A stretch of DNA of 17,987 bases from NCBI GenBank assembly GCA_029858305.1, contig JAOUFI010000046.1, positions 1 through 17,987 of the forward strand. The letters are read 5' to 3'. The translations under genes and the position numbers were made by a program. This DNA comes from Candidatus Thorarchaeota archaeon. Its GTDB lineage: Archaea; Asgardarchaeota; Thorarchaeia; Thorarchaeales; Thorarchaeaceae. The notes under the pieces were generated by a model. That model was not told the origin of the DNA, made no database searches, and saw only the letters and a program-made list of their open reading frames with translations. The number at the start of each line of letters is the position of its first letter. Positions within the stretch are counted from its first letter, which is position 1. Shown here in pieces: positions 131 through 17,963 of the stretch.

Positions 131-1549
131 TTATCCCTCCGGGTCTATCAGGGGAATTTTCCCAGGATTCATAATATTGCCAGGATCGATTGCCTGCTTT
201 AAATCGCGTAGAAAATCAAAATATGGCTCCATCTCAGAAATCCCATCTACCCAGTACGGTGCAAGTTTGAACGGAACTGCGCCAGTCTTAAAGATACGCG
301 TTGAGAGTTCCTTATGTGCCGCTCGAACTCGATTTTCTTCTTCTTCATCTTGAGGATCGTAATATAGCTGGGGATAATAGTTGTATGACGCATGGTCTGA
401 CTGAAATCCAGCAGTATGTCCTAGAATGCCAAACTTATCGAAGACACTCCACAGTTCTTCAAGTGTTCTATGCCATTGTGATATTGTTTGGTGATGGTAG
501 AGGATGCGCCAGTGCCAACCGTGCACATATGATGACCTAACAAATTCTCGCATTCGGTCATTCCATTCATTCTGTGGGAGTTCGCGAACGCCTATGACAT
601 GCCCCCCGACTTGTTCGCAGATTTGTTTCGCAACCAGTATATCGCTCTCCAGCTGCTCCTCCCTTACTCTTCCAATGACGACTGATACGGTAATGGGGGG
701 CCAATCATGTTTGGGGACTCCATATTCCTCTCCAACCATGTCTAAGAAAAAGTCAAGAATTCGTCCTTCATATATTGCTATCCAAACCATACTGACATCA
801 TTTTCCTTGGCTTCGAGGATATATTTCTCAGCATCCTGAGGAGTTTGAAAGCCATAAGTGTTGAAGTCAAAATAATGCATTCTCTTGAAGATTTTGAGAG
901 ACACCTTTGTGATGATGCCAAACTCGCCCAGAGATCCAATGAAGAGTCCTGTTAGGTCTGGACCAAAGGCATATCGAAGGAATGGTCCTGGGGCGTTTGG
1001 ATTTGCTTCAGAACCAGTCTGAATCACCTCCCCATTAGGAAGTACGACCTCAAGACCCAAAACAAGCTCAGCGATGCATCCAAACCTGCTCGAGCCAAAA
1101 CCTGATCCATTGACTGCGACATTACCTGCGATTGATGCTGTAAGAGATGACCCTGGATACACAGGTACCCAAAGATCATGCTTATTCAGGTATTTATCAA
1201 GCGCTCCAAAATTTATTCCTGCACCTACAGAAACAGATCGTAAGTCTTGGTAGAGCTCAATGGTATCTAATCTTAGCAGGTCAATAACAAGACCCCCCTC
1301 AATAGGAATGACCTCTCCCTGAAGGCTCGAACCACCAGACCTAGGAGTTACAGGTATCTTGTACTCATTTGCAATTTTGATGACCTGCGATACCTGCTGA
1401 GTGTCTGCTGGTCTCACTATGGCACCAGGCATAACAGGTTCATAGCTCGTGGAGGCTGATACCGAGTAGGTGAGAAGAATATCTTCCCTTGTGGAAACGA
1501 ACTCATCTCCTACAATCGCAGCTATTTTTTCTACGATATGCCTGTCCAA
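131..1549 (-). CDS. FAD-binding oxidoreductase, VAO/PCMH fold (GlcD / D-lactate dehydrogenase-like)
   Basis: 472 aa. FAD_binding_4 features: AIVRP...PVTPRSGGSSLQG, GLEVVLPNGEV, GPDLTGLFIGSLGEFGIIT. C-terminal LKQAIDPGNIMNPGK. TTG start with GGAGGT upstream. Confidence 0.9.
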   Translation of the reverse strand: MDRHIVEKIAAIVGDEFVSTREDILLTYSVSASTSYEPVMPGAIVRPADTQQVSQVIKIANEYKIPVTPRSGGSSLQGEVIPIEGGLVIDLLRLDTIELYQDLRSVSVGAGINFGALDKYLNKHDLWVPVYPGSSLTASIAGNVAVNGSGFGSSRFGCIAELVLGLEVVLPNGEVIQTGSEANPNAPGPFLRYAFGPDLTGLFIGSLGEFGIITKVSLKIFKRMHYFDFNTYGFQTPQDAEKYILEAKENDVSMVWIAIYEGRILDFFLDMVGEEYGVPKHDWPPITVSVVIGRVREEQLESDILVAKQICEQVGGHVIGVRELPQNEWNDRMREFVRSSYVHGWHWRILYHHQTISQWHRTLEELWSVFDKFGILGHTAGFQSDHASYNYYPQLYYDPQDEEEENRVRAAHKELSTRIFKTGAVPFKLAPYWVDGISEMEPYFDFLRDLKQAIDPGNIMNPGKIPLIDPEG

Positions 1550-1575: not shown

Positions 1576-1902
1576 TTAGAAGATATGTCTAATCTTCATG
1601 AGGTCTGATGCGGACCCCTTGACCTTGAGCTTCCTCTTTAGGAGTGCAGCCGCAGCACTCATCTCCTCAAGGAATAGCTTGCGAATTGTATCCTCGTCGC
1701 TCTCAATCTTCATATCTGGATTATCAATTCCTCCAGAGTTCACGAGTATAGTGTTGTCCTTTACTATGAAATGATATTCCCTGCCTTCCTTGAGCATCAA
1801 GAGTGCTGTTCGTTCCCAACCTTCAATTGCTTCCATGGTCTTCTCACGTTGGAGACCAATCGTAATCCTTTCGCGCATTAGTTCAAGTAGATCGTCTGTC
1901 AT
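1576..1902 (-). CDS. SCP2 sterol/lipid-binding domain protein
   Basis: 108 aa. The segment PDMKIESDEDTIRKLFLEEMSAAAALLKRKLKVKGSASDLMKI matches the SCP2 C-terminal pattern (pD..i..d...+..l......A...GKlKv.G...lmk). Confidence 0.8.
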   Translation of the reverse strand: MTDDLLELMRERITIGLQREKTMEAIEGWERTALLMLKEGREYHFIVKDNTILVNSGGIDNPDMKIESDEDTIRKLFLEEMSAAAALLKRKLKVKGSASDLMKIRHIF

Positions 1903-2001: not shown

Positions 2002-2652
2002 CTATTTACGATGAGCCTTGACAATGTCCATGAACTTCCGAACATTCTCTGTGATTATTTCGTACTTCCCTTCTTTGATTGCCTTCTTATCAGTGATAGC
2101 TCCGCCTACACCGAGTGCGAATGCTCCTGCATCAATCATGGGACCAGCTGTTTCCAAATCTACACCACCTGTAGGGACAAGGGGAATGTGAGGCAACGGT
2201 CCCTTTATCGCTTTTAGATACTCAGCTCCACCAACATTTCCACAGGGAAATACCTTTACAGCATCTGCACCGAATGTATATGCCTCATAGATCTCAGTTG
2301 GAGTTAGGGCTCCTGGGATAATTGGTTTCGAATGCTTAAGCACAGTTTCGATAAGCTCTTGAGAGTAATTGGGACTTACAATGAAGTCGCTCCCAGCCTT
2401 GATAGCCTCAATTGCCATCTTTCCATTTACTACTGTACCTGTACCAATCAGAACCTTGTTCCCAAATTGCTCAACCAATTGCTTCACAACATCAATGGCT
2501 CCAGGTACGCTCATAGTGATCTCGATTATATTAACGCCACCCGCGAGAAATGCGTCTGCTACCCTGAAAGCGACGTCCGCAGACTCAACACGGATTATGG
2601 GAATTAACCCAGTATCATGAATTTGCTTCATTGCCTTTTCTCTATTCCACAA
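2002..2652 (-). CDS. eda: Bifunctional KDPG / 4-hydroxy-2-oxoglutarate aldolase
   Basis: Motifs IPIIR, IIEITM, IGTGTV, FIVSP, PGALTPTEI, AVKVFP (Schiff-base Lys), PTGGV, GVGG. Start reassigned to TTG at 2652, 7 nt after a GAGGTGA RBS that contains the kdgK stop. The ORF-track extension to 2733 overlaps kdgK. Confidence 0.92.
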   Translation of the reverse strand: MWNREKAMKQIHDTGLIPIIRVESADVAFRVADAFLAGGVNIIEITMSVPGAIDVVKQLVEQFGNKVLIGTGTVVNGKMAIEAIKAGSDFIVSPNYSQELIETVLKHSKPIIPGALTPTEIYEAYTFGADAVKVFPCGNVGGAEYLKAIKGPLPHIPLVPTGGVDLETAGPMIDAGAFALGVGGAITDKKAIKEGKYEIITENVRKFMDIVKAHRK

Positions 2653-2659
2653 TTTGATA

Positions 2660-3655
2660 TCACCTCTCGATTCGGAGACTTCTCTCTCTTCCCTTGAGCA
2701 TCTTCTCCACCTCGTCCTTGTAAATGAACGCAAGATCTCCTGGAACTGAGTGCTTCAATGCTGAGAATGCTGATCCAAAATCTACAGCCTTTTGAAGATC
2801 CTTAAGCACAAGATATCCATAGATGAATCCTGCACTGCACGAGTCTCCTCCACCCAGTCTATCTACTATCTCCACATCATAGGTTGGGCTCCTGAAAATC
2901 TTTCCATCCGAAAAGGCAAATACCGACCATTTATTGAACCAAACCGAAGGGGTCTCACGCAAAGTGATTACCACGACTTCAAATCCGAATTTGTCAACTA
3001 ATTTTTGCGCCACCTCTTCGTAGTCCTTGCCTTCGATGCCATAGACAACTTTCGTATCTTCCTCTGTTGTGATAAGGATGTCAATGTATTCCGATGCGGG
3101 TTCAGTGAAAGCTTGAGCCTCTTTTGGAGTCCATAATTTGCTCCTATAATTCACATCATAGGAAACTTTGCAACCTTGCTTTTTGGCAATCTTCAATACC
3201 TCTATAGTCGCCTCTGAGCAGCTTTGGCTTAGTGCTGGCGTTATCCCGCTAGTATGAAAGAGTTTCGTACCCTTGAGGATGGTTGTCCAATTCACTTCTC
3301 CCGGTCTAATCTTACTGATTGCAGATTCTTTTCTATCATAGATTACTCTGTTCGTTCTTGGCGCTGCACCAAATTCCACATAGTAGACTCCACAACGGTC
3401 TTCTGGATCCCAAAGAATATGTGAAGTATCAACTCCATGCTCTCGGGCTTTGTTTCTTATGAAATGACCAATTGAGTTATCACCCAGTTTTGTCACATAT
3501 GCCGATTTTAGACCAAGTCGTGCGCATGCCACTGCAACATTCATTTCTGCTCCGCCAGCGTGAGCATCAAAGCTATGTGTCTGTTCAAAGCGCATAAAAT
3601 TAGGGGGTGAAAGTCTGAGCATCACTTCACCAAAAGTGACTACGTCATAAGTCAT
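2660..3655 (-). CDS. kdgK: 2-keto-3-deoxygluconate kinase (PfkB family)
   Basis: Motifs VVTFGEVMLRLSP, GGAEMNVA, GVYYVEFGAAPR, YDRKESA, HTSGITPALS, SYDVNYRSKLW, IVDRLGGGDS, ALKHSVPGD are typical of the KdgK subgroup. Adjacent to eda. ATG at 3655 follows GGAG (ORF track starts at 3670). Confidence 0.9.
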   Translation of the reverse strand: MTYDVVTFGEVMLRLSPPNFMRFEQTHSFDAHAGGAEMNVAVACARLGLKSAYVTKLGDNSIGHFIRNKAREHGVDTSHILWDPEDRCGVYYVEFGAAPRTNRVIYDRKESAISKIRPGEVNWTTILKGTKLFHTSGITPALSQSCSEATIEVLKIAKKQGCKVSYDVNYRSKLWTPKEAQAFTEPASEYIDILITTEEDTKVVYGIEGKDYEEVAQKLVDKFGFEVVVITLRETPSVWFNKWSVFAFSDGKIFRSPTYDVEIVDRLGGGDSCSAGFIYGYLVLKDLQKAVDFGSAFSALKHSVPGDLAFIYKDEVEKMLKGRERSLRIER

Positions 3656-3703
3656 CAGAAACAACTCCAAGTCGTTTAATATGATTTAGATGATGATGTT
3701 AAT

Positions 3704-3717
3704 GTTAAATCTGTTGT
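3704..3717 (-). promoter_or_regulatory. Putative internal BRE/TATA promoter upstream of kdgK
   Basis: Minus strand ACAACAGATTTAAC in the AT-rich GRE-kdgK spacer, about 50 nt upstream of the ATG. Confidence 0.35.
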
Positions 3718-3732
3718 AAGATACCATACTCG

Positions 3733-6084
3733 TTATGCGCTATGACTTGAGAACTCTGTTCTCGCTATCACCTCATCTTGAACAAATGGGTCAAGTTCTA
3801 TGAAATACGCACTATATCCTGCGACTCTCACAATGAGGTCTCGATGTTTCAGAGGATTCACCTTTGCATCTTCGAGTATTTCACGCGATACAACATTGAA
3901 TTGAACATGGAATCCTCCCAATTGGAAATATGCATCTATCATTCCCAAGAACTTCTCACGCCGCGATGTTGTATTAAAGAAGTCAGGAGTAAATTTCATG
4001 TTGTAGAGAGTTCCGTTGTAACAGAGTCTGTGATCAAGTCGAGCTACTGATTTCATTGCAGCAGTTGGACCATGTGTGTCTCGATTCTGTGTGGGAGATA
4101 CTCCATCCGAGAGCATGTAGCCAGCCTTTCGTCCATCAGGAGTTGCCCCTAGAACCTCTCCCTGTGGGATATACATAGAAACTGAAAAAAGCGCTCCATG
4201 ATATGGACCATTTCTTGTGGTCATTCTACTTTGAATCGACTTGCAAAACGCTCTTCCTGTGTCACGAGCTAGATAATCCACCTTTTCAATATCATTACCA
4301 TACTTGTCAGGATCATTCTCGAATCGTACGCGAAGTTCTTCGTGGTTTTCATAGTTATTCGCTATGATGCTGAGGATTTGATCCATAGACATCTCTTTAT
4401 GTTCGAATACATATTTTCTAAGGATTTCAAGAGAATCTGCCACAATGGCAACTCCAACCCCCATTATGCCGCCACTATTATAGACAGCACCACCCTCTTG
4501 CATTGTAAAACCTGAGTCAATACATCCTTCAAGTAAGGATGAAATAAATGGTGTCGGTTTATGTTTAGATAAAACATCTGCAGCTAATCTATCTGCTCGA
4601 GTTAACAAATCAATTGCGTAGTCGATCTGTTCTTCATATGCCTTCCAGAGTTGATCAAAGTGTGCGAAAGTTCTTGGATCTCCAGTTTCTTTCCCAACTA
4701 GTTCTCTGGTCTTTGGATCTCTTCCATTATTCAGTGTTATCTCCAGAATTTTCGGTAAATTCACATAGCCTATGTTTGGTCTAGGATCTGCTTTTCCACC
4801 AATAATGGGTTCAACACAGCCAAGTATCGCGTAATCATAGGCTTCAGCTTCGTCAGTTCCCTTATCGACCATTATTGGGATAATCGTTTCATCATTGAAC
4901 AATCCTGGCATCCCGAGCCCCTTTGAAATAACATCGACAACCATGAGCTTTAGGTGTTTGGGCGTCTTTTTATGCCATCTAAAGGAGACCGTAGGTTGTG
5001 TCATTCTTATGTTTGCAGTTGTTTCAAGAATCAGTTCTGTTAACTCATTACTTGCATCATTGCCCTGTTTGTCTTGACCACCTACAGTAAGATTCTGGAA
5101 CATAGGATGTCCGGCAAATGCCACACTATAGTACTCATTTCTCAATTTTATGAGTGAGGTGAATTTCACCCACAACATCTCAAGCAATTCAAGAGCATAT
5201 GCCTTGTTTATCTTTCCACCTTTCATGTCATTATGGAAGTACGGATACAAGTATTGATCGAATCTACCTGTGGACATAGAATGCCCATTGGATTCAGTCT
5301 GGACAAGGAGGTGAATAAACCAAAAAGCCTGTAAAGCCTCGTGGAATGATCCGGCTGGTTGTGCAGGGACTTTCGCACAAATCCTTGAGATTTCAGCTAA
5401 CTCTTCCTTTCTCTTCTCATTCTTTTCTTTGTTAGCCAATTCCTGTGCAAGGAGAGAGAACCTGTTTGCAAATCGAATGACAGCTTCTAATTCAATTCTT
5501 ACAGCCCTATAGAATTGGACTTTCTTCTCATCCTGTTTGCTCTTCTTTTCATGAATACTAATCTGAGAGAGAATATGGTTTAATCCCTTATTGATGACCA
5601 ATGGGTAATCCACAATAACATGTCCTATTCCAGTACCAGGAGCTCCTATTGTAAACAGTCCTGCCTTGGATGCCCTCACAGATTCCATAGGCATGACTTT
5701 TGCCGCAATCTCTGCAGTGCTCTTACCACTCCAGAACTCGAAGACCCGACTTAGATTCTCTTTATCCTTCTTGCTAAGAAAGAATCTTTCAGTTCTCCGT
5801 TTACTGAATCTGTCTAGCTCATCATTTATCCAAGCCCAACTATATTCTGGAAATATCTGGCATGATCGAGGTGTTGGTCCCATATTCCCGACAATTAGTT
5901 CCTCTGGCTCAATCCTTATGGTCATTCTATCAAGCACATGAGCGAAAGCTCCTGCCAAGCGGATTATCGTGGGCTCAGACCAATGTTTGCGAACATAATC
6001 CGTGAAAAGGACTGCTCTCTCTGAGGAAATGGTTGGTTCTGATTCAAGCATTCGTTGTTTCATTCTCAATGTCCGAGCTGTCAT
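3733..6084 (-). CDS. Glycyl radical enzyme (PFL2 / glycerol-propanediol dehydratase-like eliminase class)
   Basis: About 783-791 aa. Gly-radical loop LIVRVAGYSAYF (RVAGY at 3814-3828), single-Cys loop GCVEP (4807-4821), ESNGHSMSTGRFDQY, ATPDGRKAG, HVQFNVV. Probable start MTART at 6084 (ORF track: 6108). Confidence 0.93.
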   Translation of the reverse strand: MTARTLRMKQRMLESEPTISSERAVLFTDYVRKHWSEPTIIRLAGAFAHVLDRMTIRIEPEELIVGNMGPTPRSCQIFPEYSWAWINDELDRFSKRRTERFFLSKKDKENLSRVFEFWSGKSTAEIAAKVMPMESVRASKAGLFTIGAPGTGIGHVIVDYPLVINKGLNHILSQISIHEKKSKQDEKKVQFYRAVRIELEAVIRFANRFSLLAQELANKEKNEKRKEELAEISRICAKVPAQPAGSFHEALQAFWFIHLLVQTESNGHSMSTGRFDQYLYPYFHNDMKGGKINKAYALELLEMLWVKFTSLIKLRNEYYSVAFAGHPMFQNLTVGGQDKQGNDASNELTELILETTANIRMTQPTVSFRWHKKTPKHLKLMVVDVISKGLGMPGLFNDETIIPIMVDKGTDEAEAYDYAILGCVEPIIGGKADPRPNIGYVNLPKILEITLNNGRDPKTRELVGKETGDPRTFAHFDQLWKAYEEQIDYAIDLLTRADRLAADVLSKHKPTPFISSLLEGCIDSGFTMQEGGAVYNSGGIMGVGVAIVADSLEILRKYVFEHKEMSMDQILSIIANNYENHEELRVRFENDPDKYGNDIEKVDYLARDTGRAFCKSIQSRMTTRNGPYHGALFSVSMYIPQGEVLGATPDGRKAGYMLSDGVSPTQNRDTHGPTAAMKSVARLDHRLCYNGTLYNMKFTPDFFNTTSRREKFLGMIDAYFQLGGFHVQFNVVSREILEDAKVNPLKHRDLIVRVAGYSAYFIELDPFVQDEVIARTEFSSHSA

Positions 6085-6132
6085 CCTAAAACATATCATC
6101 CCTTTCATTGATTACTCTTATCATACAGGATT

Positions 6133-7299
6133 TCACAGCAGTTTTGGAAGATAACTATCCAACCTGCTAAGAGCTTCCTCAATTCTCTGCGTTGAAACAG
6201 CGTAGCAGAGTCTAAGGAATCCTTCTCCAAATTTACCAAATGCAGAACCATGAACTGTCACGACACTCGTATCCTTGAGGATTTTGAGAACAAGGTCATA
6301 GGATTTCATTCCATAAGCCGAAACATCTGGAAAGACATAGAATGCACCCCCTGGCGGTTCTAGCTCAACTCCTTCGATTGCATTCAATCCCTTGGTTATT
6401 ATCTCACGTCGTTTCTTGAAAGTCTGAAGCATATCTTCCACACAGTCTTGTGGTCCTGATACTGCAGCTTGAGCAGCTTTCTGTGATATCGTTGTGGGCA
6501 TAGCAATGATATGTTCTTGAAGTTTTGTCATCGCGCCTATAATCTCTCTCGGACCAACACATGCTCCTATGCGCCAACCTGTCATTGCATATGTCTTGCT
6601 GAGCGAGAAGAGTGATACTGTGCGCTCCTTCATTCCTGGTAGAGACCCGATAAAGAGTGGTTTTTCTGTATCATACCTGAACTTTTCATACGCCTCATCT
6701 GAAAGAACGTAGATATCATGCTCGATACAAACATCAGCAATTCTCTTCAATTCCCTATTTGGGATGATTCCCCCAGTCGGATTGTTTGGAGAATTTAGAA
6801 CTAGCATTTTGGTCTTGTCTGTTATGACCTGCTCTAGCTCCTCTGCAGTAAAACCAAATCTATTCTCTTTTTTCAATTGGATGGGTACAGGTATGCCTTG
6901 TGCTAGCTTGATATGTGCATAATGACTGACAAAACCAGGATCTGGATAAATCACTTCATCCCCTGGATTGATGACGACCATATTTGCTAGAACAAGAGCG
7001 CCCATGCCACCAGCAGTGCACATAATTTCCGTGACAGGATCAGAATCAATTCCATTATCCCGTTTTATCTTCTGGGCCAGGGCTTCTCGAACTTCAATTA
7101 ATCCAGCATTGTGAGTATACCGTGTATATCCATCATCAATTGCTTGCTTCGCAGCTTCCTTGATATGTTGAGGTGTATCAAAGTCTGGGATTCCAACTGT
7201 CATATCAAAGACATCTGTTCTGCCTATGACCATGTTGTAGATCTTGCGAATCTCGCTTCCTGGAACGTATGCATTTCTGTCTGCTAGCAATTGTACCAC
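6133..7299 (-). CDS. PLP-dependent aminotransferase class I/II (aspartate aminotransferase-like)
   Basis: Motifs GIPDFDTP, YTHNAG, LNSPNNPTG, VLSDEAYE, SLSKTYAMTGWRIG (PLP Lys), PGGAFYVF, GFLRLCYA. GTG start. Confidence 0.93.
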   Translation of the reverse strand: MVQLLADRNAYVPGSEIRKIYNMVIGRTDVFDMTVGIPDFDTPQHIKEAAKQAIDDGYTRYTHNAGLIEVREALAQKIKRDNGIDSDPVTEIMCTAGGMGALVLANMVVINPGDEVIYPDPGFVSHYAHIKLAQGIPVPIQLKKENRFGFTAEELEQVITDKTKMLVLNSPNNPTGGIIPNRELKRIADVCIEHDIYVLSDEAYEKFRYDTEKPLFIGSLPGMKERTVSLFSLSKTYAMTGWRIGACVGPREIIGAMTKLQEHIIAMPTTISQKAAQAAVSGPQDCVEDMLQTFKKRREIITKGLNAIEGVELEPPGGAFYVFPDVSAYGMKSYDLVLKILKDTSVVTVHGSAFGKFGEGFLRLCYAVSTQRIEEALSRLDSYLPKLL

Positions 7300-7400: not shown

Positions 7401-7443
7401 GGCAACTCCAGAAGAATCAATAATCCATCAGGAGATGCAGAAG

Positions 7444-7917
7444 ATGTCACGACCCAGCGCTGATGAAGTGAGAAATAGTTCTATGCAGACGCTTGCTGAC
7501 ACCCATGTTGTTTATGTAGAAACTGTACGTCGATCTTTCGGTACTGAAGGACTCAAATCTATAGGCGATGCAAACAGAGTACATGGGCGGAACCTCGGCG
7601 AATCTGCAATAAAAGCAGGGAATCTTCGCAGGGGAGACTTGCGCTCTATCTTTGAGTTCTTTGATGCGGCTCATCCTTATTTCGGATTCGATCTAGAAGT
7701 GGAACACATCAGTGACAAAGAGCTGAATTTGAAAGTAACATCATGTCCTTGGATTGATTCTTTCAGAGCCAGAGGCGCGGGCGAAGACATTTGCACGTGG
7801 GTCACATTGATCGACGAAGGAATTGGTCAAGCAGTAGACGCTGAAGTAAAATTAACAATTCCTAAGTGTATGATGCGGGGTGATGACTACTGCATTTATC
7901 GATGGGCGAAAGAATAG
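7444..7917 (+). CDS. L-2-amino-thiazoline-4-carboxylate hydrolase-like / V4R-fold small-ligand-binding protein
   Basis: Pattern V..CPW...x10..IC...D.G....x12..CMMRGDDYC.YRW is typical of this Cys-rich family. ATG at 7444 follows GGAG (ORF track: 7435). Confidence 0.7.
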   Translation: MSRPSADEVRNSSMQTLADTHVVYVETVRRSFGTEGLKSIGDANRVHGRNLGESAIKAGNLRRGDLRSIFEFFDAAHPYFGFDLEVEHISDKELNLKVTSCPWIDSFRARGAGEDICTWVTLIDEGIGQAVDAEVKLTIPKCMMRGDDYCIYRWAKE

Positions 7918-7928
7918 GGGCAGATTAT

Positions 7929-8597
7929 TTGACGAATAAACGAACATCCATAATCCAAAGAACACTCAAACTGTATGTTGCTGCTTTGTCTGATGCCGCT
8001 GATGAAATAGGACTGAATCAAGTCTGCATGGACCGAGGGATATTTCCTCTCACTGAAAACAAGAGGATGGCCGGCTTTGCAAGAACCGGAAAACTGGTAC
8101 GATCTCCGGTAAACCAACCCTACGATGAGGCTCAGCTAGATACTTTCATGAGTCTTGCCACGAAAGCAATTGATGGTGATTTGATCACAATTGATATGTC
8201 TGGTAGCACTGACTGTTCAGCTTGGGGGCAAGTTCTTACTAGGATTGGAAAACCCTTGGGAGTACGTGGAGCGCTTGTGGATGGAACATCTCGGGATATC
8301 GATGACATCAACAAAATGGACTTTGCTGTCTTTGCGCGAGGTCGTCATCCTGGAACAATGAGAGGAAGAATGAACATGGAATCTGTGCAGGAGCCTATCA
8401 CATGTGGAGGCATCACTGTACATCCTGGGGATCTCATTTTTGGGGATGGTGATGGTGTTGTAGTAATACCTATTGACCATATCGACGAGATACTGGTTCA
8501 TGCAGAGCATGTTGTATCAACAGACAATTGGTGGGCTGAAAGACTTGATGAAGGAAGGGATCCTCATGAACTCCATAAGGAAAGACCAATTCCCTAG
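7929..8597 (+). CDS. RraA family / 4-hydroxy-4-methyl-2-oxoglutarate (HMG/CHA) aldolase-like protein
   Basis: Motifs AALSDA, SAWGQVL, GVRGALVDGTSRDIDDI, FAVFARG, CGGITVHPGDLIFGDGDGVVVIP. Probable TTG start at 7929, avoiding overlap with the upstream gene (ORF track: 7902). Confidence 0.88.
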   Translation: MTNKRTSIIQRTLKLYVAALSDAADEIGLNQVCMDRGIFPLTENKRMAGFARTGKLVRSPVNQPYDEAQLDTFMSLATKAIDGDLITIDMSGSTDCSAWGQVLTRIGKPLGVRGALVDGTSRDIDDINKMDFAVFARGRHPGTMRGRMNMESVQEPITCGGITVHPGDLIFGDGDGVVVIPIDHIDEILVHAEHVVSTDNWWAERLDEGRDPHELHKERPIP

Positions 8598-8695: not shown

Positions 8696-8980
8696 TTGGC
8701 GAAAAAAAGAAAATCATCCGGACGAGCAAAGGGAGGAGCCGGCCACAAGGGTTCGGTCCAATGCTCAAGATGTGGACGATTAGTCCCATCCGATAAGGCA
8801 AAGAAATTTACTAAAACTGTCAGTTCTGTTGAGCCACAGATTGCACGAGAACTTCGTCAACAAGGTTCATACATCCCTGCACATCGGACTACTGCTTACT
8901 ATTGTGTAAGTTGTGCAGTCCATTCTGGTAAGGTGCATATTCGGGATAGCAAAGCGAGGAAGACAATCCCAGCTCGCTAG
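8696..8980 (+). CDS. rps26e: 30S ribosomal protein S26e (eS26)
   Basis: 94 aa, basic. KKRKSSGRAKG...VQCSRCGRLVPSDKAKK...YYCVSCAVHSGKVHIR is the eS26 zinc-finger signature. Confidence 0.95.
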   Translation: MAKKRKSSGRAKGGAGHKGSVQCSRCGRLVPSDKAKKFTKTVSSVEPQIARELRQQGSYIPAHRTTAYYCVSCAVHSGKVHIRDSKARKTIPAR

Positions 8981-9111: not shown

Positions 9112-10233
9112 CTATGTGTATCTACCCTTCTTTAGCGCATAATCATAAATCTCAAGTATTTTCTGAGGAGTTGAGTCTGGTTGGATGTTGTGAGCAGGTG
9201 CTAGAATATAACCTCCACCAGGAGCAAGTGCCCCGAGGCGCTTATCTATCTCTTCTCTAAGTTCTTCTTTTGTTCCTGATTCTGCCATTGCGCGTTGCAG
9301 GTCAATTCCACCATGGAAAGAGAGTCTGTCTCCATATTTCATCTTAAGGTCCTTTGATTCCATTCCAAATGCCAAGGGCTGAATCGGATTCAGAATATCA
9401 ACTCCGACATCAATCAAATCTTTGATGAGAGGTTCAATTGCGCCGCAGCTATGATATAGCAACTTAACATGCGGTGCTCGTCGATGTATGTCCCCATAGA
9501 TTTTGAGATGACGTGGCTTAATCAAGTCACGATACATTTTGGGGCTGATGATCAATCCTTGTTGATGTCCAAGGTCATCTCCTACCTGAACAATATCCAA
9601 GTAGTCGCCAACCTCATCCAACAAAACTCGGTTCATATCCAATGCAAACTCCATGCATTTGTCCATCATTGCCTCAGCCAGTTTCCTGTTCTTTACTAAG
9701 TCAATCAGGAACTTGTCAAAGCCCCTCATGTAATGTTCGCAGATTTCAAAAACTCCCCAAGGTCCTCCAACCATTCCGACTACAGCATTGTCTGTCTGTT
9801 CATGTAAATACTTGGCCCATTCAACCACTCCATCCATCCTAGAAGAATCATCAGCATCTGGCCATGCATATTCCTCAACTTGTTCTACCTCTGTGAATTC
9901 CGCCCATGGGTAGTATGTTATCTCCCAGTAGGGACCAAACCACTTTCCTCTAAATCCATACTCGGAGTCTGTCGTTCCATCGGGATATGTCTTAGCTTGG
10001 AAGCTTTTCGCGGTGTTCATGTAGACTCGACGAAAGTCAACATGAAGTCGTTGGAGGAGTTCTTCCGATGTCTTCCAGCTCGACATGATACCCCACTCTT
10101 GGGTTTCCTCTGCAGTGATTCCTAGATGATCTCTGAGTTTTTCATATGCCGCTGGAGTGGTCCAATAATCAAGAGGCACTCTATCCGGCTCTTCATGATT
10201 CAGTGTTGTTAAAACTCTCTCTCTTGATTTCAT
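9112..10233 (-). CDS. Uroporphyrinogen decarboxylase superfamily protein (URO-D/MtaA-CmuA-like TIM barrel), not canonical HemE
   Basis: Motifs MKSRERVL..LNHEEPDRVP, GDDLGHQQGLIISP, YHSCGAI, GVDILNPIQP, FHGGID, GGYILAPAHNIQ. Lacks the HemE RQAGR motif. Confidence 0.85.
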   Translation of the reverse strand: MKSRERVLTTLNHEEPDRVPLDYWTTPAAYEKLRDHLGITAEETQEWGIMSSWKTSEELLQRLHVDFRRVYMNTAKSFQAKTYPDGTTDSEYGFRGKWFGPYWEITYYPWAEFTEVEQVEEYAWPDADDSSRMDGVVEWAKYLHEQTDNAVVGMVGGPWGVFEICEHYMRGFDKFLIDLVKNRKLAEAMMDKCMEFALDMNRVLLDEVGDYLDIVQVGDDLGHQQGLIISPKMYRDLIKPRHLKIYGDIHRRAPHVKLLYHSCGAIEPLIKDLIDVGVDILNPIQPLAFGMESKDLKMKYGDRLSFHGGIDLQRAMAESGTKEELREEIDKRLGALAPGGGYILAPAHNIQPDSTPQKILEIYDYALKKGRYT

Positions 10234-10386: not shown

Positions 10387-11769
10387 ATGGTTGATGTTGC
10401 AAAGATTACTCGCCTTCTAGGCGAAATTGTACCGCCTAAGAGAGTGAGTGATAGAGATTTTGATCTTATTCCCTATAGCAGGGATCTGAGTCCTGCAAGA
10501 CAAAAGATGCCTACTCATGTTGTCATCCCTGAATCTAAAGAGGAGATACAGGGGATTCTGAAGATTGCCAATCAAGAAAATGTTCCAGTGTACATCAGAG
10601 GTGGAGGCACTTCACATTGGGACGCATATCTCGCTCAGGAACCAGGGATTATGCTCGATATGAGCAGGATGAATAAAATAATCAACATCAATGAGCGTGA
10701 CCTTGTTGTTACAGTTCAACCCAACTGTACATGGGCTAAGCTGGATAGAGAGCTTCGGAAACATGGACTGACATATCTTTGCAGTGAAGCAGGTGGTCCA
10801 GCTATGACAGTTGGAGGTTCTGTTATGAAGGCTGGTAGTGGTCCTCATTCTACGGCCAAATTCGGTTTCCATGGTAATCAGGATGTAGTCACACTAGAAA
10901 TGGTCCTACCGAATGGAGATGTCGTTCAAACTGGTTCTGCAGCTTGGCCAAGTGCTGGGAAGTTTGAACGCCAATGCCTTGGTCCTGATCTTGGTGGTAT
11001 GTTCATTGGCGCAGAGGGAATCCTCGGTATCTGTACTGAATTGACAATGAGAATTCGACCAGCCTCAGATTTCAAGGAGCGTTTGGTGGCTGTAATGCCT
11101 TCACTTGATAGTGTTGTCGAGTTTGGTCATTTCATCAATCGTCATGTTGGAGATGAATATCTTCAAGGCACATATCTATGGGTTGACCCCAACACTCCAG
11201 ATGTCTTCCTTTTCATGATGGATATCTTCGGATACGAGGAAGAAATCATAGAACACAGGAAAAAGAAGCTGATTGAGAAGGTCAAGGAACTAGGTGGACA
11301 ACTCGGAGACCGAGCCCCTGCAGATGACTACTTTGGTCGTATTCTCACGGGATTGACCGATCTATTCAATACTGGAGTATGGCATTTCTTTGGGGCTGGA
11401 ACTCTTAGGATTGATGATATCCAGTTTATGTATGATGTTTGGAGAAGAGAGCTAATCGAAAAGAGAGGATATCGGAAAGCAGGATTTGGAGGACAAATCT
11501 TGCCACGTCGTTGGCTTGCTTTCATGGTGACCAACTATCGAGAACCTGGAGAATGGGATGAGCTAGTCAAAATGGCTCATGAGATTGATAAGATCATTCT
11601 CGCAGGACCCGTGATTCCGTATGGCATAGGTGGTCGTGATGGGCTCAGGAACATTGTTGCATCTCACGATACTGGTTACTATCGTCTGCTGAAGACCCTA
11701 AAACGAACACTTGATCCTAAGAATATCCTACAGAGAGGAATATTCATACCCCAGGAGGAATTGCATTGA
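10387..11769 (+). CDS. FAD-binding oxidoreductase (GlcD/Dld-like flavoprotein subunit)
   Basis: Motifs YSRD, VVIP, VPVYIRGGGTS, TVGG, LEMVLPNGDVVQTGS, GPDLGGMFIGAEGILGI and C-terminal LKRTLDPKNIL. Overlaps the downstream Fe-S gene by 4 nt. Confidence 0.9.
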   Translation: MVDVAKITRLLGEIVPPKRVSDRDFDLIPYSRDLSPARQKMPTHVVIPESKEEIQGILKIANQENVPVYIRGGGTSHWDAYLAQEPGIMLDMSRMNKIININERDLVVTVQPNCTWAKLDRELRKHGLTYLCSEAGGPAMTVGGSVMKAGSGPHSTAKFGFHGNQDVVTLEMVLPNGDVVQTGSAAWPSAGKFERQCLGPDLGGMFIGAEGILGICTELTMRIRPASDFKERLVAVMPSLDSVVEFGHFINRHVGDEYLQGTYLWVDPNTPDVFLFMMDIFGYEEEIIEHRKKKLIEKVKELGGQLGDRAPADDYFGRILTGLTDLFNTGVWHFFGAGTLRIDDIQFMYDVWRRELIEKRGYRKAGFGGQILPRRWLAFMVTNYREPGEWDELVKMAHEIDKIILAGPVIPYGIGGRDGLRNIVASHDTGYYRLLKTLKRTLDPKNILQRGIFIPQEELH

Positions 11770-12962
11770 GAATCGAAGAATTTCGAGATATGATCTACGC
11801 CTGTGGAAGGTGCAATTTCTGCCGAGGAATAGATTTCAATGAACGTTGTCCTGAAATCTTTACTCAAACTTGGGAGTCTTCCACAGCTCGAGGAAGAATG
11901 GCAATTGCCCGAGGAATCCTCGAAGGAAAATTAGACTATTCTGAAGAGATGGCTGAACGTATCTTTGGTTGTTTTATGTGTGGCCGTTGTAGAGAAGAAT
12001 GTAAGAAAGCGGCCCAAATTGATGTCATAGATATTACAAAAGCCATGAGAGCTGATTTCATTGAGCAGGGAGTGAAGATTCCGGAAGGCGGCTCGAAGAT
12101 GGCTGATACCGCTATCTCAAGTGGGAATATCTTTGCAGATACTCCTGAGATTCACACAAAATGGGCAGAAGGTCTAGAATTTGTAGAAGGTTCTGGTACG
12201 CTTTTCTACCCTGGTTGTTTGGCAAGTCATCGATTTAAAGAGAAGACGAATATCCTTGTGCAAGTATTGCAAGCTGCTGGTTATGAACTAGATTTCCTTG
12301 GTCATGATCAGACATGCTGTGGAACTCCCCTATGGGTGACAGGAAAAATCAAGAATGCCAAAAGATGGGCGCAAGACTACCTCCAGAAGTTGCAAGATCG
12401 TGGTGTCAAAGAGATAATCACTCCTTGCCCAAGCTGTTTCAGAGCATTTGACGAAGAGTATCCTGTGCTCCTTGGATTAGATAAGTTCCCAATACGTGTA
12501 CGACATACAAGTGAAATTCTTGAGGAGATAGTAGAACAGAAGAAGCTAAAATTCAAAATTTCCATTAACAAGCGAGTGACATATCACGATCCATGCGAAA
12601 TAGGTCGATACAAAGGTATCTATGAACCTGCGAGGAAAGTGTTTGCAGCTTTACCAGGGATTGAGTTTATCGAGATGTCACGAAACAAAGCGGATGCCTT
12701 CTGTTGCGGTGGGGGCGGTGCCGTGAAACTGATGTATGAAGACTACTCGAATGCTGTGGCAAAAGAACGGATTCAAGACTTTATTCAAACAGGTGCTGAC
12801 GTATTAATAACCATTTGTCCAGCATGTGAGATGAACCTCACACACGGTACATATGCAGCAGATATTGAGGCACGTGTCCTTGATGTAGCAGAATTGATGG
12901 CTGTAGCGGCAGGAATAGTGGATCCAGAGATCTTGGAGACCGATTATTTCCCAGAAGACTAA
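11766..12962 (+). CDS. Fe-S oxidoreductase, GlcF/HdrD-like (ferredoxin domain plus two CCG domains)
   Basis: 4Fe-4S motifs CGRCNFC...CP and CFMCGRCREEC. CCG domains YPGC...TCCG...CPSC and YHDPC...CCGGGG...ICPAC. TTGA start/stop overlap with the upstream gene. Confidence 0.92.
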   Translation: MRIEEFRDMIYACGRCNFCRGIDFNERCPEIFTQTWESSTARGRMAIARGILEGKLDYSEEMAERIFGCFMCGRCREECKKAAQIDVIDITKAMRADFIEQGVKIPEGGSKMADTAISSGNIFADTPEIHTKWAEGLEFVEGSGTLFYPGCLASHRFKEKTNILVQVLQAAGYELDFLGHDQTCCGTPLWVTGKIKNAKRWAQDYLQKLQDRGVKEIITPCPSCFRAFDEEYPVLLGLDKFPIRVRHTSEILEEIVEQKKLKFKISINKRVTYHDPCEIGRYKGIYEPARKVFAALPGIEFIEMSRNKADAFCCGGGGAVKLMYEDYSNAVAKERIQDFIQTGADVLITICPACEMNLTHGTYAADIEARVLDVAELMAVAAGIVDPEILETDYFPED

Positions 12963-13007: not shown

Positions 13008-13298
13008 TTATCCTCCAACTGCAGCTATCATGAAGACAATCAGGTCTCCTTTTGAGACCTTTGTCTTAATACCCTCTCGGGAAACCATATTCATTCCATT
13101 GATGAACACAATTGCATCTCTTCTTAGTAGTCTATCTTTCTCTTCATCAAGATAGACCTCAAAGCGGTCACCGTACTCCTCATGTAGCTCACCGATCAAT
13201 TCTTCGATAGTTGAACCCTCTTTTGTATTGAAAGGAAATTTATTGTGCTCTGAATTCTTCAAGCCTTTGTTCATCAACTTCACGAACACTTCAGTCAA
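13008..13298 (-). CDS. MoaD/ThiS/SAMP (Urm1-like) ubiquitin-like sulfur carrier
   Basis: 96 aa beta-grasp pattern: STIEELI..L, IVFING, TKVSKGDLIVF, C-terminal di-glycine AVGG-stop. TTG start with GGTGA RBS. Confidence 0.88.
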   Translation of the reverse strand: MTEVFVKLMNKGLKNSEHNKFPFNTKEGSTIEELIGELHEEYGDRFEVYLDEEKDRLLRRDAIVFINGMNMVSREGIKTKVSKGDLIVFMIAAVGG

Positions 13299-13517: not shown

Positions 13518-14315
13518 TTGGTTGCGATTAATTTGGCAAATGCAAAAGAACGTAGAACTCTCAGAGAATGGCTGATGGAAAATGCACGCGATAGCCCTGT
13601 GCACTATACTGAGATTGCTGAGAGACTAGGCAGGGATCCCGCCTCGGTTTCTGCTTCTCTGTCCATAGAGAAGGCACAAGCAGAAGTCGATGGAAGACCC
13701 GCATATTTCTTGAGAGTCGCGCCTGGACTCTATAGATTCAATGATCTCTGCGAAGGGGCAATCACTGAACAGCAGCTCGATGAAGACCTGCGAGAAAAGT
13801 CTCGTGCAAGCAAGTTGGCTACTAGGAATGAGATGAACCAAGCCATCGCCAACCTCGACCTGAATGGATTTAGAGAACTTGCCGAGGTTATTCTTGTCAA
13901 TGTCAGGGTCAACCGAGAAGAGATTCGGGAACGTAAGCGGTACAATAACACAATTGTTATGACAACCAGCTGGCTAGATGATGGTGGTCGAGCACCTGTC
14001 GTGTTCTATGCGAAGAAATGTGAGCTCGATGAGCCGATTGGCGAGGAAACGATACTCGAGATACGTGGAGCGCTGCCTACCTATCGTGCAAACCAAGGCG
14101 TTCTCATATCGAACGGTATTTGTACACCTGATGCAAAAAATGAGGCACTCCAGCCAGAACTCACCGTGCCGCCTGTCCATATCATGGACAAAGAGATCAT
14201 CCTGAATGTTCTCTTTGAGAGCAGGACCGGAGTCAAGTCCAGCAAAGTAGAGATATTCCTGCTTGACACAGATTTCTTCAAACATCTCATGCCCGAGGAA
14301 AGGAAAAACCAATAA
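13518..14315 (+). CDS. Winged-HTH (HARE-HTH-like) plus Mrr-like restriction endonuclease domain protein, probably catalytically degenerate
   Basis: N-terminal PVHYTEIAERL...SVSASLS...FLRVAPGLYRF. C-terminal Mrr_cat-like F.EL...IL ... AKK ... IGEETILEIRGAL...ANQGVLISNG.CTPDAKNEA...PVHIMD...ILNVL...GV. Confidence 0.7.
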   Translation: MVAINLANAKERRTLREWLMENARDSPVHYTEIAERLGRDPASVSASLSIEKAQAEVDGRPAYFLRVAPGLYRFNDLCEGAITEQQLDEDLREKSRASKLATRNEMNQAIANLDLNGFRELAEVILVNVRVNREEIRERKRYNNTIVMTTSWLDDGGRAPVVFYAKKCELDEPIGEETILEIRGALPTYRANQGVLISNGICTPDAKNEALQPELTVPPVHIMDKEIILNVLFESRTGVKSSKVEIFLLDTDFFKHLMPEERKNQ

Positions 14316-14539: not shown

Positions 14540-16072
14540 TTGAGTGAGGACAAACTCCTCTTTGTCAGAGAGTCGTCCGGCCTCGTTAAGGAAGTAGGTA
14601 CGGGCTTTGCTCTCCTCCTCCCAATAGCACTGACATTGGGACCGTGGTTCCACTACTTTGGACCCCAGGTCTCGACTTGGAATCCTGGCGCGCATCTTAC
14701 ACCAATGTATGCAATTGGTGCGGCAACGGTCTTCTTTGAGGCCCTTGCACTCATGTGTTTGATGCTTGCCATGCCAAGATCAGGAGCCTCATACCACTTC
14801 ACAGGAAGAGGTCTGAGCCCGATTTTCGGTGTAATGGAAGGTTGGCGGAGCGTAATCACGAACCCTGTCTTCAGGGGAACTGGGAGCTTCTTCGCAGTAC
14901 AGATCTTCGCTGGTGGTCTTACGGTCATTGGCACAGCAACAAGCAATACTGCATTGATCTCATTTGCAGCGACACTTGGATCAGATGTCATTTGGCTGTT
15001 CACCGCTGCTTTTCTGATGATCCTTGTCGGATTTTTCTTCAGCTATTTGAGTGTAAAGTGGCTGGGATGGTTCGTTATAATTCTGGGAATCATCAATATA
15101 GTAGCATTATTGGTTGCAGATCTTGTAATGCTTGCGACACCCATTAACCAGACTGTCTGGGAAGGTACGATGGGTGCTGGAACATGGGCTCCAATAGCTG
15201 CCTTCGATAACACTGCTTACGTAAACTTCAACTGGGGAGCAGTTGGCCCCGCACTCCTGCTCACTGTAGGTGGTATGTGGCCATATCTCATTATGCCTGT
15301 CGCAGGTGAGGTTTCGCAACCGAGCAGAAACATTCCACTAAGCAACCTTGGTGGATGGGCTGGAATTGCAGTTTTCTTCCTGCTATCCGGTTTTGCTGTA
15401 GAGTCCTGCATGGGACCCTACCTATATGGCATAAACTCTGTAGGTGGCGTCTTCCCCGGCTTCGGTAACTACGCCGCAGTCATTCTTGGTGCTAATCCAC
15501 TAGCCTGGTTCGTGATATTATGTCCGATATTCGCAAGTGTTTTAGACTCACCAAGTAACGCGTTGTGGGTCACCCGACCTATGCATAGCATGGCTATGGA
15601 CCGATTCTGTCCTGAAGCATTTGCACGCGTCCATCCGAAGTACCATGTTCCACACATCACTCTGTGGTTCTGGCTAATCCTCTCGGCTGGTACAGTCGCA
15701 TATGCTACAGCTCTACAGTACTTCTACGGTACTGCGCTGGCCTCACTGATTGGCGTGGCATATACCTACGTCTTCATCAGGTGGCAGATGGCATTAGCAG
15801 CAGTCTCGTTACCATATTACCGACCGACCTTATGGGAGCGGAGCGGAGGATGGAAATTCCTAGGAATTCCGTTGATATCCCTCGGTGGTTTGGTATCAGG
15901 AGCTATGTTCTTCTGGGCTATCATCGCATACGTACCGGGACTACCCTACGAGGTAGCGTTCACGGTAGCTGTCTACGTGATAGGTCAGATTGCTTACATG
16001 TACTATGGAGCAAAGAACAAGGCTAAGGGCATTGAGATGTCCGCCATCTTTGGACAACTACCCCCCGAGTAG
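14540..16072 (+). CDS. APC superfamily amino acid/polyamine permease
   Basis: 510 aa with about 12 hydrophobic segments. Motifs LFVRESSGLVKE, AMPRSGASY, AGEVSQPSRNIP, MAMDRFCPEAFARVHPKYHVP. TTG start after AAGGAG. Confidence 0.92.
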   Translation: MSEDKLLFVRESSGLVKEVGTGFALLLPIALTLGPWFHYFGPQVSTWNPGAHLTPMYAIGAATVFFEALALMCLMLAMPRSGASYHFTGRGLSPIFGVMEGWRSVITNPVFRGTGSFFAVQIFAGGLTVIGTATSNTALISFAATLGSDVIWLFTAAFLMILVGFFFSYLSVKWLGWFVIILGIINIVALLVADLVMLATPINQTVWEGTMGAGTWAPIAAFDNTAYVNFNWGAVGPALLLTVGGMWPYLIMPVAGEVSQPSRNIPLSNLGGWAGIAVFFLLSGFAVESCMGPYLYGINSVGGVFPGFGNYAAVILGANPLAWFVILCPIFASVLDSPSNALWVTRPMHSMAMDRFCPEAFARVHPKYHVPHITLWFWLILSAGTVAYATALQYFYGTALASLIGVAYTYVFIRWQMALAAVSLPYYRPTLWERSGGWKFLGIPLISLGGLVSGAMFFWAIIAYVPGLPYEVAFTVAVYVIGQIAYMYYGAKNKAKGIEMSAIFGQLPPE

Positions 16073-17101: not shown

Positions 17102-17234
17102 TGTGATATGACCGCCTTTCATAATAGTAGGTTTATCGATCTGAGATTGGTTTTCGAGGTGCTGTTCTTAAAGGTTCTTAAAAGACTCCACGACCTCACC
17201 TTAAGAATCAAAAGGGTTAAAGGCTTGATACTCG

Positions 17235-17963
17235 GTGGCTCCTAAAAGAGGATATTCCACGATGAGTCAACATCCAAAACGAGAGAGAGAGACCTCTACG
17301 TCTCTAGAAGACTTTGAGTTTGATCCTTCTGAGATTGATTTGAAGTACAGTAAAAACCTAATGACTGTCTTTGATGGCTATCGTATTCATCGGACCTATG
17401 ACCTAGGATTCATTGATAAGGCAATCAACAAAGGCGCTCTTCCAAAGGCGTTCATCCGTCAATGGGGAACAATTAGATCCGTACTTCACAAGTTGGCTGC
17501 TATCGGTCCGAAGGTCCCTGGCGTGGAATCTTGGCTAAACAAGAAGCAATACTTGGCCTTCATATCTATGGCTGTACTTACAATTGTAGCACCATTACTA
17601 TTGCTTACATGGGTGTTTCAATGGGATTTTCTTGTACCATATGCTTTGCCCTTAGCACTTATCGCAGTTGGTCTAATGCTTGTGAATTGGCTTGCCTCAT
17701 CTTGGTTCAATCGCAAGGTGGCATGGGCCATACACTACTATATAGAAGATAATCAGAACCTAGTCGCTAGAGAACGTGTGCTGCTAAAGAAATGGGTCCA
17801 GATTCTAATTCACCATACCGCACGGGTGATGAGAAAAGGTGGATACGATCCTGCTAAGAATTTAGTCAAGTTCTTCAATGACGACTACGTCGGGATAGAA
17901 GTGCTCAAGGTACCTGCTGGTCTTCGAAAGAACTATGTTGTAAAGATTAAGCTAACCGGATGA
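17235..17963 (+). CDS. Hypothetical membrane protein with two central transmembrane helices
   Basis: 242 aa. Hydrophobic hairpin YLAFISMAVLTIVAPLLLLTWVF / FLVPYALPLALIAVGLMLVNWLA flanked by basic soluble domains. Alternative ATG at 17262. Confidence 0.75.
   Translation: MAPKRGYSTMSQHPKRERETSTSLEDFEFDPSEIDLKYSKNLMTVFDGYRIHRTYDLGFIDKAINKGALPKAFIRQWGTIRSVLHKLAAIGPKVPGVESWLNKKQYLAFISMAVLTIVAPLLLLTWVFQWDFLVPYALPLALIAVGLMLVNWLASSWFNRKVAWAIHYYIEDNQNLVARERVLLKKWVQILIHHTARVMRKGGYDPAKNLVKFFNDDYVGIEVLKVPAGLRKNYVVKIKLTG

Follow-up and report, generated by a model that had tools for sequence, protein, structure and literature searches.

Genes at the locus

We analysed a stretch of 17,987 nucleotides (nt; the window), which is the entire contig JAOUFI010000046.1 of a 3.04-Mb, 89% complete Thorarchaeota genome (GCA_029858305.1) from an uncultured sediment Asgard archaeon. 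According to the open reading frame (ORF) calls, four genes follow each other head to tail on its minus strand, encoding an aminotransferase, a glycyl radical enzyme (GRE), a 2-keto-3-deoxygluconate (KDG) kinase and an aldolase for KDPG (2-keto-3-deoxy-6-phosphogluconate):

6133..7299, minus strand: class I pyridoxal phosphate (PLP)-dependent aminotransferase, 388 amino acids (aa), Pfam PF00155
3733..6108, minus strand: GRE from a clade specific to Thorarchaeota within the PFL2/glycerol-dehydratase subfamily, with M1 at 6108 (791 aa) and M9 at 6084 (783 aa) as alternative starts
2660..3655, minus strand: KDG kinase (KdgK), PfkB family, Thermotoga maritima 2afb-like, 331 aa
about 2002..2652, minus strand: KDPG/2-keto-4-hydroxyglutarate (KHG) aldolase (Eda), probable TTG start at 2652, TIGR01182

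Orthologues of the GRE start at either the M1 or the M9 equivalent. The spacer between the aminotransferase and the GRE is 48 nt to M9 (24 nt to M1), that between the GRE and kdgK is 77 nt and AT-rich, and that between kdgK and eda is about 7 nt. The initial annotation had described this one-strand arrangement with short spacers, and all four ORFs are indeed found on the minus strand between 2002 and 7299. It had also stated that the window contains no conventional KDG-forming dehydratase, and this holds: among the 17 window ORFs scanned, none is of the Gad, IlvD/Edd, UxaA or UxuA type. A promoter scan of the locus with a sigma-70 model, which is ill-suited to archaea, gave matches at chance level. 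One metatranscriptome run (6% of words in common) contained three short contigs of low depth over eda/kdgK, kdgK and the GRE, too weak for use.

A separate clade of glycyl radical enzymes

GREs are oxygen-sensitive radical enzymes. The protein encoded here passes TIGR01774 (736 bits at a cut-off of 678) and contains the motif GCVE (as GCVEP, with C431 and E433) and the Gly loop RVAGY (G764). It stays below the NCBIfam equivalog cut-offs for CutC (550 of 1050 bits), HpfG (606 of 1000), HpsG (538 of 1000), PflD (581 of 1109), IAD (438 of 1100), HPAD (351 of 1150) and PFL (155 of 994), and below that for HypD (NF043068, 577 of 1100 bits), whose signature QRAPGH / GCxE...GKEAY is missing. The closest solved relatives are glycerol dehydratase (685 bits) and propanediol dehydratase (621 bits). 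The AlphaFold2 model (mean predicted local distance difference test score, pLDDT, 95.7) superimposes on these enzymes (1r8w) with a template modelling (TM) score of 0.97 and a root-mean-square deviation of 1.3–1.4 Å and thus adopts the GRE barrel fold. Sequence identity is 41% to glycerol dehydratase, 37% to propanediol dehydratase, 35% to YbiW and 34% to HypD, whereas the two dehydratases share 58% with each other.

A profile of 29 orthologues was searched against 1.84 billion representatives clustered at 50% identity. One cluster scored 1554 bits and the next 810, and this gap marks the clade as isolated. Outside the family, 24 sampled genomes were searched, and none yielded an orthologue. 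A FastTree phylogeny was calculated from 64 GRE sequences (10 references and 7 orthologues, plus 47 taken from the 149 further representatives of the profile search; HplG, HpyG, HpzG, IslA and HpsG were not among them). The Thorarchaeota sequences form a clade with a support of 1.0, which joins three uncharacterised proteins (0.96); deep branches are poorly supported. The initial annotation had suggested such a placement among characterised GREs and had named tight clustering with glycerol dehydratase, propanediol dehydratase or HypD as evidence against its proposal; both tree and identities set the enzyme apart from all three. Orthology to a characterised GRE (glycerol or propanediol dehydratase, HypD, YbiW, PflD or CutC) is ruled out by cut-offs, identity and tree. 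A database label of one orthologue (P0049) as benzylsuccinate synthase is likewise ruled out, as the protein reaches 286 bits to 4pkc versus 685 bits to glycerol dehydratase and has the Cys-X-Glu (CXE) motif. The ESM Atlas returned generic family names only. The GRE is an isolated, lineage-specific and uncharacterised clade.

Residues of the predicted pocket

We compared the GRE with glycerol dehydratase at Tyr339, Trp445-His446-Asp447, Tyr640 and further positions, which presumably line the pocket in glycerol and propanediol dehydratase.

H163, H276, S277, C431, E433 and G764: None of these residues varies among the 120 aligned orthologues.

Arg443-Pro/Gln444-Asn445: This segment replaces Trp445-His446-Asp447 of glycerol dehydratase. 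Arg443 is invariant in all 120 orthologues and shares its alignment column with Arg453 of YbiW, which we take to be a phosphate or anion ligand.

His334: It corresponds to Tyr339 and is replaced by Phe in 11 of the 120 orthologues.

Tyr448, Phe641 and APGTG: The equivalent elements in glycerol dehydratase are Phe450, Tyr640 and the loop NYYYNG, which is longer.

Val643: The same position is occupied by Val in propanediol dehydratase.

The loss of Asp447, the invariant Arg443 and the shortened loop would fit a larger, anionic substrate.

Kinase, aldolase and aminotransferase

KdgK: The best solved relative is the T. maritima KDG kinase 2afb (275 bits, E 7e-81), followed by 1v19, 2v78 and 1wye. 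The motifs GGAEMN, YDR, DVNYR, DR-GGGD and PGD, which we take to be the KDG-binding, substrate-side motifs, are kept in 81–86 of 86 aligned Thorarchaeota sequences. The protein stays under all lineage-specific NCBIfam cut-offs (315 of 440, 186 of 400 and 82 of 400 bits; IolC 176 of 300).

Eda: It passes TIGR01182 (184 bits at a cut-off of 156), and the Glu, Arg and Schiff-base Lys motifs are present (IIRVE, IEITMS, AVKVFP). Kinase and aldolase are each the only close copy in the genome.

Aminotransferase: It is nearest to the aspartate/aromatic aminotransferase PDB 1gd9/1dju.

Conservation of the cluster and search for conventional dehydratases

Synteny was assessed in 42 GTDB loci, with denominators counting the loci that have enough flank, and gene distribution in 37 genomes of the family. 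kdgK follows the GRE downstream at a distance of at most 300 nt in 38 of 40 loci, eda was detected in 33 of 35, and in 32 of 35 the aminotransferase adjoins the GRE upstream; in an overlapping set of 30 loci, kdgK was found in 29. One and the same set of 32 among the 37 family genomes contains the GRE orthologue together with kdgK and eda, and 31 of the 37 have the aminotransferase. The initial annotation had asked whether the GRE-kdgK-eda order recurs in other genomes; it does, and this arrangement is no coincidence.

IlvD/Edd, UxaA and UxuA were not found in the 89% complete genome of this archaeon, and its sole MR/MLE protein is closest to L-Ala-D/L-Glu (dipeptide) epimerases. Across the family, UxaA and UxuA were each found in 0 of 37 genomes and IlvD/Edd in 2 of 37, KduI/KduD and PLP-dependent glucosaminate-lyase routes not having been searched for family-wide. 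Non-enolase MR/MLE proteins occur in 10 of 37 genomes; the one assessed, that of this genome, is epimerase-like. All four families (UxaA, UxuA, IlvD/Edd and non-enolase MR/MLE) are missing from 21 of the 32 genomes with kdgK.

G060 is the only sampled Asgard genome outside the family with a close kdgK-eda pair (62% and 48%). Along with three MR/MLE-type proteins, it encodes UxaA, UxuA and IlvD, but an orthologue of this GRE is lacking. At its locus (L073:7185-9953), an HpcH-type aldolase gene precedes kdgK and eda; here too, a class II aldolase accompanies the kdgK-eda pair. Among the closest kdgK relatives outside the Thorarchaeota (the best 80 of 575 metagenome matches), kdgK-eda is found near genes of LarA-family, Zn-dehydrogenase, Gfo/Idh/MocA, KduI/IolB and transporter-like proteins. 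No second, bacterial GRE-kdgK-eda pairing was met among these best 80 of 575.

Displaced GRE genes and decay in one genome

In one lineage, the GRE gene is found separately, upstream of a thermosome gene and, where the flank is visible, downstream of a 2-oxoacid oxidoreductase gene. In the same lineage (G061, G031), aminotransferase-kdgK-eda lies at another locus which the GRE does not adjoin. The translocated GRE is intact in G061 and G062, and in G061 kdgK, eda and the aminotransferase are intact as well.

G031 (97% complete) has the only broken GRE gene among the 42 loci. Its GRE contains three stops, kdgK two stops and decayed motifs, and eda a C-terminal frameshift; the MtaA-like gene described below and an Mrr-like neighbour gene are frameshifted. 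These decaying genes are spread over three loci (L074, L075, L170). The aminotransferase and the four of four control neighbours compared have no stop. Recoding of stop codons was ruled out as the cause of the breaks, as three kinds of stops (TAG, TGA, TAA) occur, with frameshifts in eda and the MtaA-like gene. A test for relaxed selection by the ratio of nonsynonymous to synonymous rates (dN/dS) was uninformative due to saturated synonymous sites. These data show that kdgK and eda became dispensable, and the aminotransferase did not, in a genome that lost glycyl-radical chemistry. In G065, the GRE seemed intact without an activase, but the scaffold has gaps, one of them inside the GRE, and the genome was not counted either way.

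Activase and further GREs of the genome

The genome contains one TIGR02494 activase gene (G000:C98:24569-25435; L076:10483-11526), which lies beside a different GRE. In 33 of the 37 family genomes an activase was detected, and 30 of these 33 have just one copy, while most genomes have two to four GRE matches. The three GREs of the genome differ in their Gly loops (RVAGYSA, RVAGYSD and RVTGYNA). As one activase copy faces several GREs, activation is probably shared, which suggests a promiscuous activase common to several GREs.

Two observations concern the other GREs. The one at G000:C205:202697-205147 (L077:7698-10148, minus strand) exceeds the HypD cut-off (1251 versus 1100 bits) and is 53% identical to bacterial HypD. 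Its Cys loop reads GCVT, not CXE, so that it apparently has no catalytic Glu and represents an archaeal HypD-like variant. The GRE at G000:C98:22104-24548 (L076:8105-10549), directly upstream of the sole activase gene, is a third, uncharacterised GRE with a GCLE loop and a long tree branch.

The wider block

The conserved block extends beyond the four genes to about 12962. The following features complete it or flank it downstream of eda:

7435..7917, plus strand: small protein of the ATC_hydrolase family, its gene divergent from that of the aminotransferase (135-nt spacer)
7902..8597, plus strand: aldolase-like protein of the RraA/HMG class II type, found in 31 of the 37 family genomes
9112..10233, minus strand: protein of UroD/MtaA fold that contains H261-x-C263 and H348; MtaA (4ay7/4ay8) is the nearest solved structure
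10387..11769, plus strand: flavin adenine dinucleotide (FAD)-linked oxidoreductase resembling GlcD/D-lactate dehydrogenase; 31 of the 37 family genomes have an orthologue
11766..12962, plus strand: Fe-S protein with CCG domain (GlcF/HdrD-like), probable partner of the FAD oxidoreductase, with which its gene overlaps
1576..1902, minus strand: SCP2-domain protein, accessory, occurring in 22 of the 42 loci (many are truncated)
131..1549, minus strand: second GlcD-like FAD oxidoreductase, accessory, in 23 of 42 loci, many of them truncated

Limiting the system to four genes, as in the initial annotation, was too narrow. The MtaA-like protein occurs in the same 32 of 37 genomes as GRE, kdgK and eda, and the RraA-like protein and the GlcD-like protein at 10387 have nearly the same distribution, being missing also from G031. 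At the position of the second GlcD-like gene, other genes are found in L057, L058, L063, L067 and L070.

The best sequence and fold match of the MtaA-like protein is the methylcobalamin:coenzyme M methyltransferase MtaA (TM 0.69), with scores far below the MtaA cut-offs. The HxC motif is present, and the third zinc-ligand position is His instead of Cys. Orthologues or homologues adjoin genes for RACo or B12-binding proteins in G062, G031, G048 and G058, but not in this window. In G028, a RACo-MtaA-corrinoid trio directly follows eda, and in L053 an MttB-like and a corrinoid gene are located close to the block. The MtaA-like protein is a candidate corrinoid-dependent demethylase, and together with its corrinoid and RACo neighbours it hints at a methylated substrate. 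The RraA-like protein is a candidate aldolase for non-phosphorylated 4-hydroxy-2-oxo acids.

Other genes were seen in and around the block. The ribosomal protein S26e gene (8696-8980, plus strand) lies inside it, between the RraA-like and MtaA-like genes, and is found there otherwise only in the two closest loci (L031, L032). The block is bordered by a ThiS/MoaD/SAMP ubiquitin-like gene (13008-13298, minus strand) in 15 of 43 loci and by a gene for an Mrr_cat-domain protein (13518-14315, plus strand) in 12 of 43. The APC-family amino-acid permease gene (14540-16072, plus strand), which may not be part of the block, is the sole part of the window under a long, 99%-identical RNA contig of higher depth (one run). 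Two ORFs of 317 and 242 aa (16169-17122, minus strand; 17235-17963, plus strand) have no Pfam or NCBIfam match. In 13 loci (L031:15521-16657 and 12 others), a myo-inositol-1-phosphate synthase gene is found a few kb beyond the block on its downstream side, and a gene for an S-adenosylmethionine-dependent methyltransferase lies just past eda on the opposite strand in six (L042:12051-12938 and five others). A paralogue sharing 59% identity with the FAD oxidoreductase of 131-1549 begins at a contig edge (G000:C97:3-1295); because relatives have a tandem second copy at that place, contig C97 may extend the contig of the window.

Proposed reaction

For this module, we infer the activation, reaction type, substrate, order of steps and accessory roles as follows. 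The GRE would be the entry dehydratase of a sugar-acid catabolic module of the Thorarchaeota, activated in trans, probably by the single activase of the genome. In glycerol dehydratase, Cys433 abstracts hydrogen, Glu435 deprotonates and His164 protonates the leaving group, according to a 2026 GRE review (PMC13450708, section 5.6). As the CXE motif and the His164 equivalent are the residues assigned there to C-O elimination, the GRE is predicted to catalyse such an elimination. The thiyl radical of Cys431 would take the C2 hydrogen of an aldonate, Glu433 would deprotonate the C2 hydroxyl, and His163 would protonate the leaving group at C3, which may be OH or, in a modified sugar acid, O-methyl or a ring oxygen. 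Return of the hydrogen would yield a 2-keto-3-deoxy acid. A product derived from a hexonate would then be converted by KdgK and Eda to pyruvate and glyceraldehyde-3-phosphate. Where phosphorylation of the product is impossible (pentonate or 6-deoxy types), the RraA aldolase may cleave it, the resulting hydroxy acids may be oxidised by the GlcDF-like enzyme, and the MtaA-like protein may strip the methyl group from a methylated substrate.

Weighing the interpretation

We favour the interpretation that the GRE is a radical C-O 1,2-eliminase, forming from an aldonate, possibly O-methylated or anhydro, the 2-keto-3-deoxy acid used by KdgK and Eda, and we consider its chances about even. Its link to KdgK and Eda is strong but circumstantial. 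The initial annotation had proposed the GRE as supplier of these enzymes, and this part is supported by synteny, shared presence, one case of joint decay and the fact that the usual dehydratases were mostly not found; chemistry and substrate we infer. Its view of the aminotransferase as a partner was sustained in part: the gene adjoins the GRE in 32 of 35 loci, but is intact in G031, where GRE, kdgK and eda decay.

Several observations weigh against our interpretation. The joint decay is a single event, and G031 lacks the activase and all other GREs, so that loss of the activase accounts for decay of the GRE without another cause. The five genomes without the GRE also lack aminotransferase, MtaA-like protein, RraA and FAD oxidoreductase; since the whole block is absent, the co-loss alone does not mark kdgK and eda as partners of the GRE. 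In addition, two of the five are only 83–85% complete, and related genomes are not independent. At the best 80 of 575 metagenome loci, no GRE was found nearby, and the GRE-kdgK-eda pairing therefore appears to be of single origin. A dehydrogenase producing an aldonate is no constant member of the block (Zn-dehydrogenase family in 9 of 43 loci), and neither window nor cluster contains a GRE activase. The occurrence of Phe at position 334 indicates that His334 is not a required anion ligand, and the family-wide dehydratase search had the limits given above.

Four other explanations were considered. The GRE may belong to the module and act on an amino or N-methyl compound, for example glucosaminate, which would give KDG via an imine, or a hydroxylated or methylated amino acid finished by aminotransferase and aldolase. 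We regard this as unlikely, although it is the most probable of the four. The aminotransferase stays with kdgK-eda when the GRE moves, besides adjoining it in most loci, and L053 has MttB-like and corrinoid genes near the block; moreover, HypD, HpyG and HpzG take hydrogen beside nitrogen and lose water, as stated in PMC13450708. In contrast, the acidic residues of HypD and CutC are missing from the aligned loops of the GRE, Asp447 is lost, and the aminotransferase, intact in G031, resembles ordinary aspartate/aromatic aminotransferases. Ranking next, and likewise improbable, is a divergent diol dehydratase acting downstream, in which aldehydes released by aldol cleavage (glyceraldehyde, lactaldehyde, glycolaldehyde) would be converted by reduction into glycerol, 1,2-propanediol or ethylene glycol, whose dehydration would serve as an electron sink. 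Glycerol and propanediol dehydratase are nearest in solved sequence and fold (685 and 621 bits; TM 0.97), H163, H276, S277, C431 and E433 match, and V643 equals the Val of propanediol dehydratase. However, with 41% and 37% identity the GRE is more distant from the two than they are from each other (58%) and forms a clade apart from both, the positions of Asp447, Tyr339, Trp445, Tyr640 and the YY loop are all replaced, and kdgK would be left without a supplier.

The order of steps could also be reversed. The PfkB kinase would then phosphorylate the sugar acid first, as in the YbiW/PflD pathway, and the GRE would act on the 6-phosphate, turning 6-phosphoaldonate into KDPG in place of Edd, followed by Eda. 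The position of Arg443 in the column of YbiW Arg453, presumably a phosphate ligand, and the presence of IlvD/Edd in only 2 of 37 genomes agree with this order. So does the C2 hydrogen abstraction from 6-phosphosugars by YbiW and PflD upstream of an aldolase (PMC13450708). The kinase, however, retains the motifs of KDG kinases, enzymes acting on 2-keto acids, and neither His334 of YbiW nor the loop residues of PflD are conserved in the GRE. We rank this possibility just behind the diol dehydratase. The least probable explanation, to which we give little credence, is that the GRE is a passenger of a catabolic island with an unrelated substrate, KDG being derived from PLP-dependent beta-elimination by the aminotransferase, from uptake or from an unrecognised dehydratase. 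Consistent with a passenger, co-loss covers the whole block, loss of the activase explains the GRE decay in G031, the 77-nt AT-rich spacer could carry a promoter of kdgK itself, and aminotransferase-kdgK-eda persists without an adjoining GRE in G061 and G031. Against it, the translocated GRE is kept intact in G061 and G062, and kdgK and eda decay in the one genome without GRE chemistry while its aminotransferase remains intact.

Relation to known systems

Glycerol and propanediol dehydratase: The B12-independent glycerol dehydratase of Clostridium butyricum (1r8w/1r9d) and propanediol dehydratase (5i2a/5i2g, 9rco) resemble the GRE in fold, Gly loop, CXE and the equivalents of His164, His281 and Ser282. 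In contrast to them, the GRE has replaced pocket residues, belongs to a separate clade and is not adjoined by genes for an activase, an alcohol dehydrogenase or a microcompartment. Its gene context also differs from that of the loci used as a comparison for glycerol/1,2-propanediol dehydratase (L082, L083).

YbiW and PflD: These anhydroglycolysis isomerases of E. coli (8id7, 8yjo, 8id0) likewise combine a GRE with an aldolase in sugar catabolism. The C2-H abstraction and subsequent C-O cleavage to a keto-deoxy product described for them in PMC13450708 is the reaction proposed for the GRE. With YbiW, only the Arg column is common; identity is 35%, the clade is separate, and His334 of YbiW and the YRCTG signature are not matched. 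The partner of YbiW/PflD is fructose-6-phosphate aldolase, whereas the GRE is paired with KDPG aldolase and KDG kinase.

Semi-phosphorylative Entner-Doudoroff and hexuronate routes: In these routes, Gad, an IlvD-type enzyme, UxaA or UxuA precedes KdgK and Eda. The lower pathway found here is the same, of the T. maritima type. Their dehydratases were not found in most family genomes, and a radical enzyme occupies that position.

Hydroxyproline GREs: HypD, HpyG, HpzG and HplG share the CXE eliminase core with the GRE, and archaeal hosts are plausible as the genome has a HypD. The HypD pocket residues are missing from the GRE (34% identity, 577 of 1100 bits).

Literature and significance

Full-text literature searches, which returned listings and the starts of abstracts, with most subscription papers outside their reach, gave no description of a GRE making KDG or of this Thorarchaeota locus. 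PMC13450708 states that the PFL-like GREs with a characterised function are all bacterial; in its accessible part, no sugar-acid GRE is listed, and the terms "gluconate", "keto-3-deoxy", "Entner" and "aminotransferase" do not occur. A figure in PMC8163825 labels some Thorarchaeota GREs, which may include the present clade, as alkyl- or benzylsuccinate synthases. PMC6258724 has a supplementary GRE tree, and PMC12756279 reports a ligand screen by chymotrypsin protection that needs no activation.

The feature is real, conserved and uncharacterised, and it is a new GRE clade. Its context is unusually informative and testable, as the coupled KdgK/Eda read-out is encoded next door. We propose tentatively, and with some doubt, a more far-reaching scheme. 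In it, the GRE would be a metal-free radical aldonate dehydratase or a lyase eliminating methanol or an ether, and would take the place of every known dehydratase family at the first step of a branched, Entner-Doudoroff-like route in Asgard archaea. This route would be linked with the corrinoid-dependent removal of methyl groups from methylated sugar acids, with one activase common to GREs with different Gly loops, and the enzyme would be the first functionally assignable archaeal PFL-like GRE. Activase specificity is described as poorly studied in PMC13450708, and one activase for several GREs would bear on it. If the proposed reaction is true, it would extend the GRE superfamily by a new reaction and the lower Entner-Doudoroff pathway by a novel kind of entry enzyme, and it would provide a concrete carbon substrate for a widespread, uncultured Asgard lineage of sediments.

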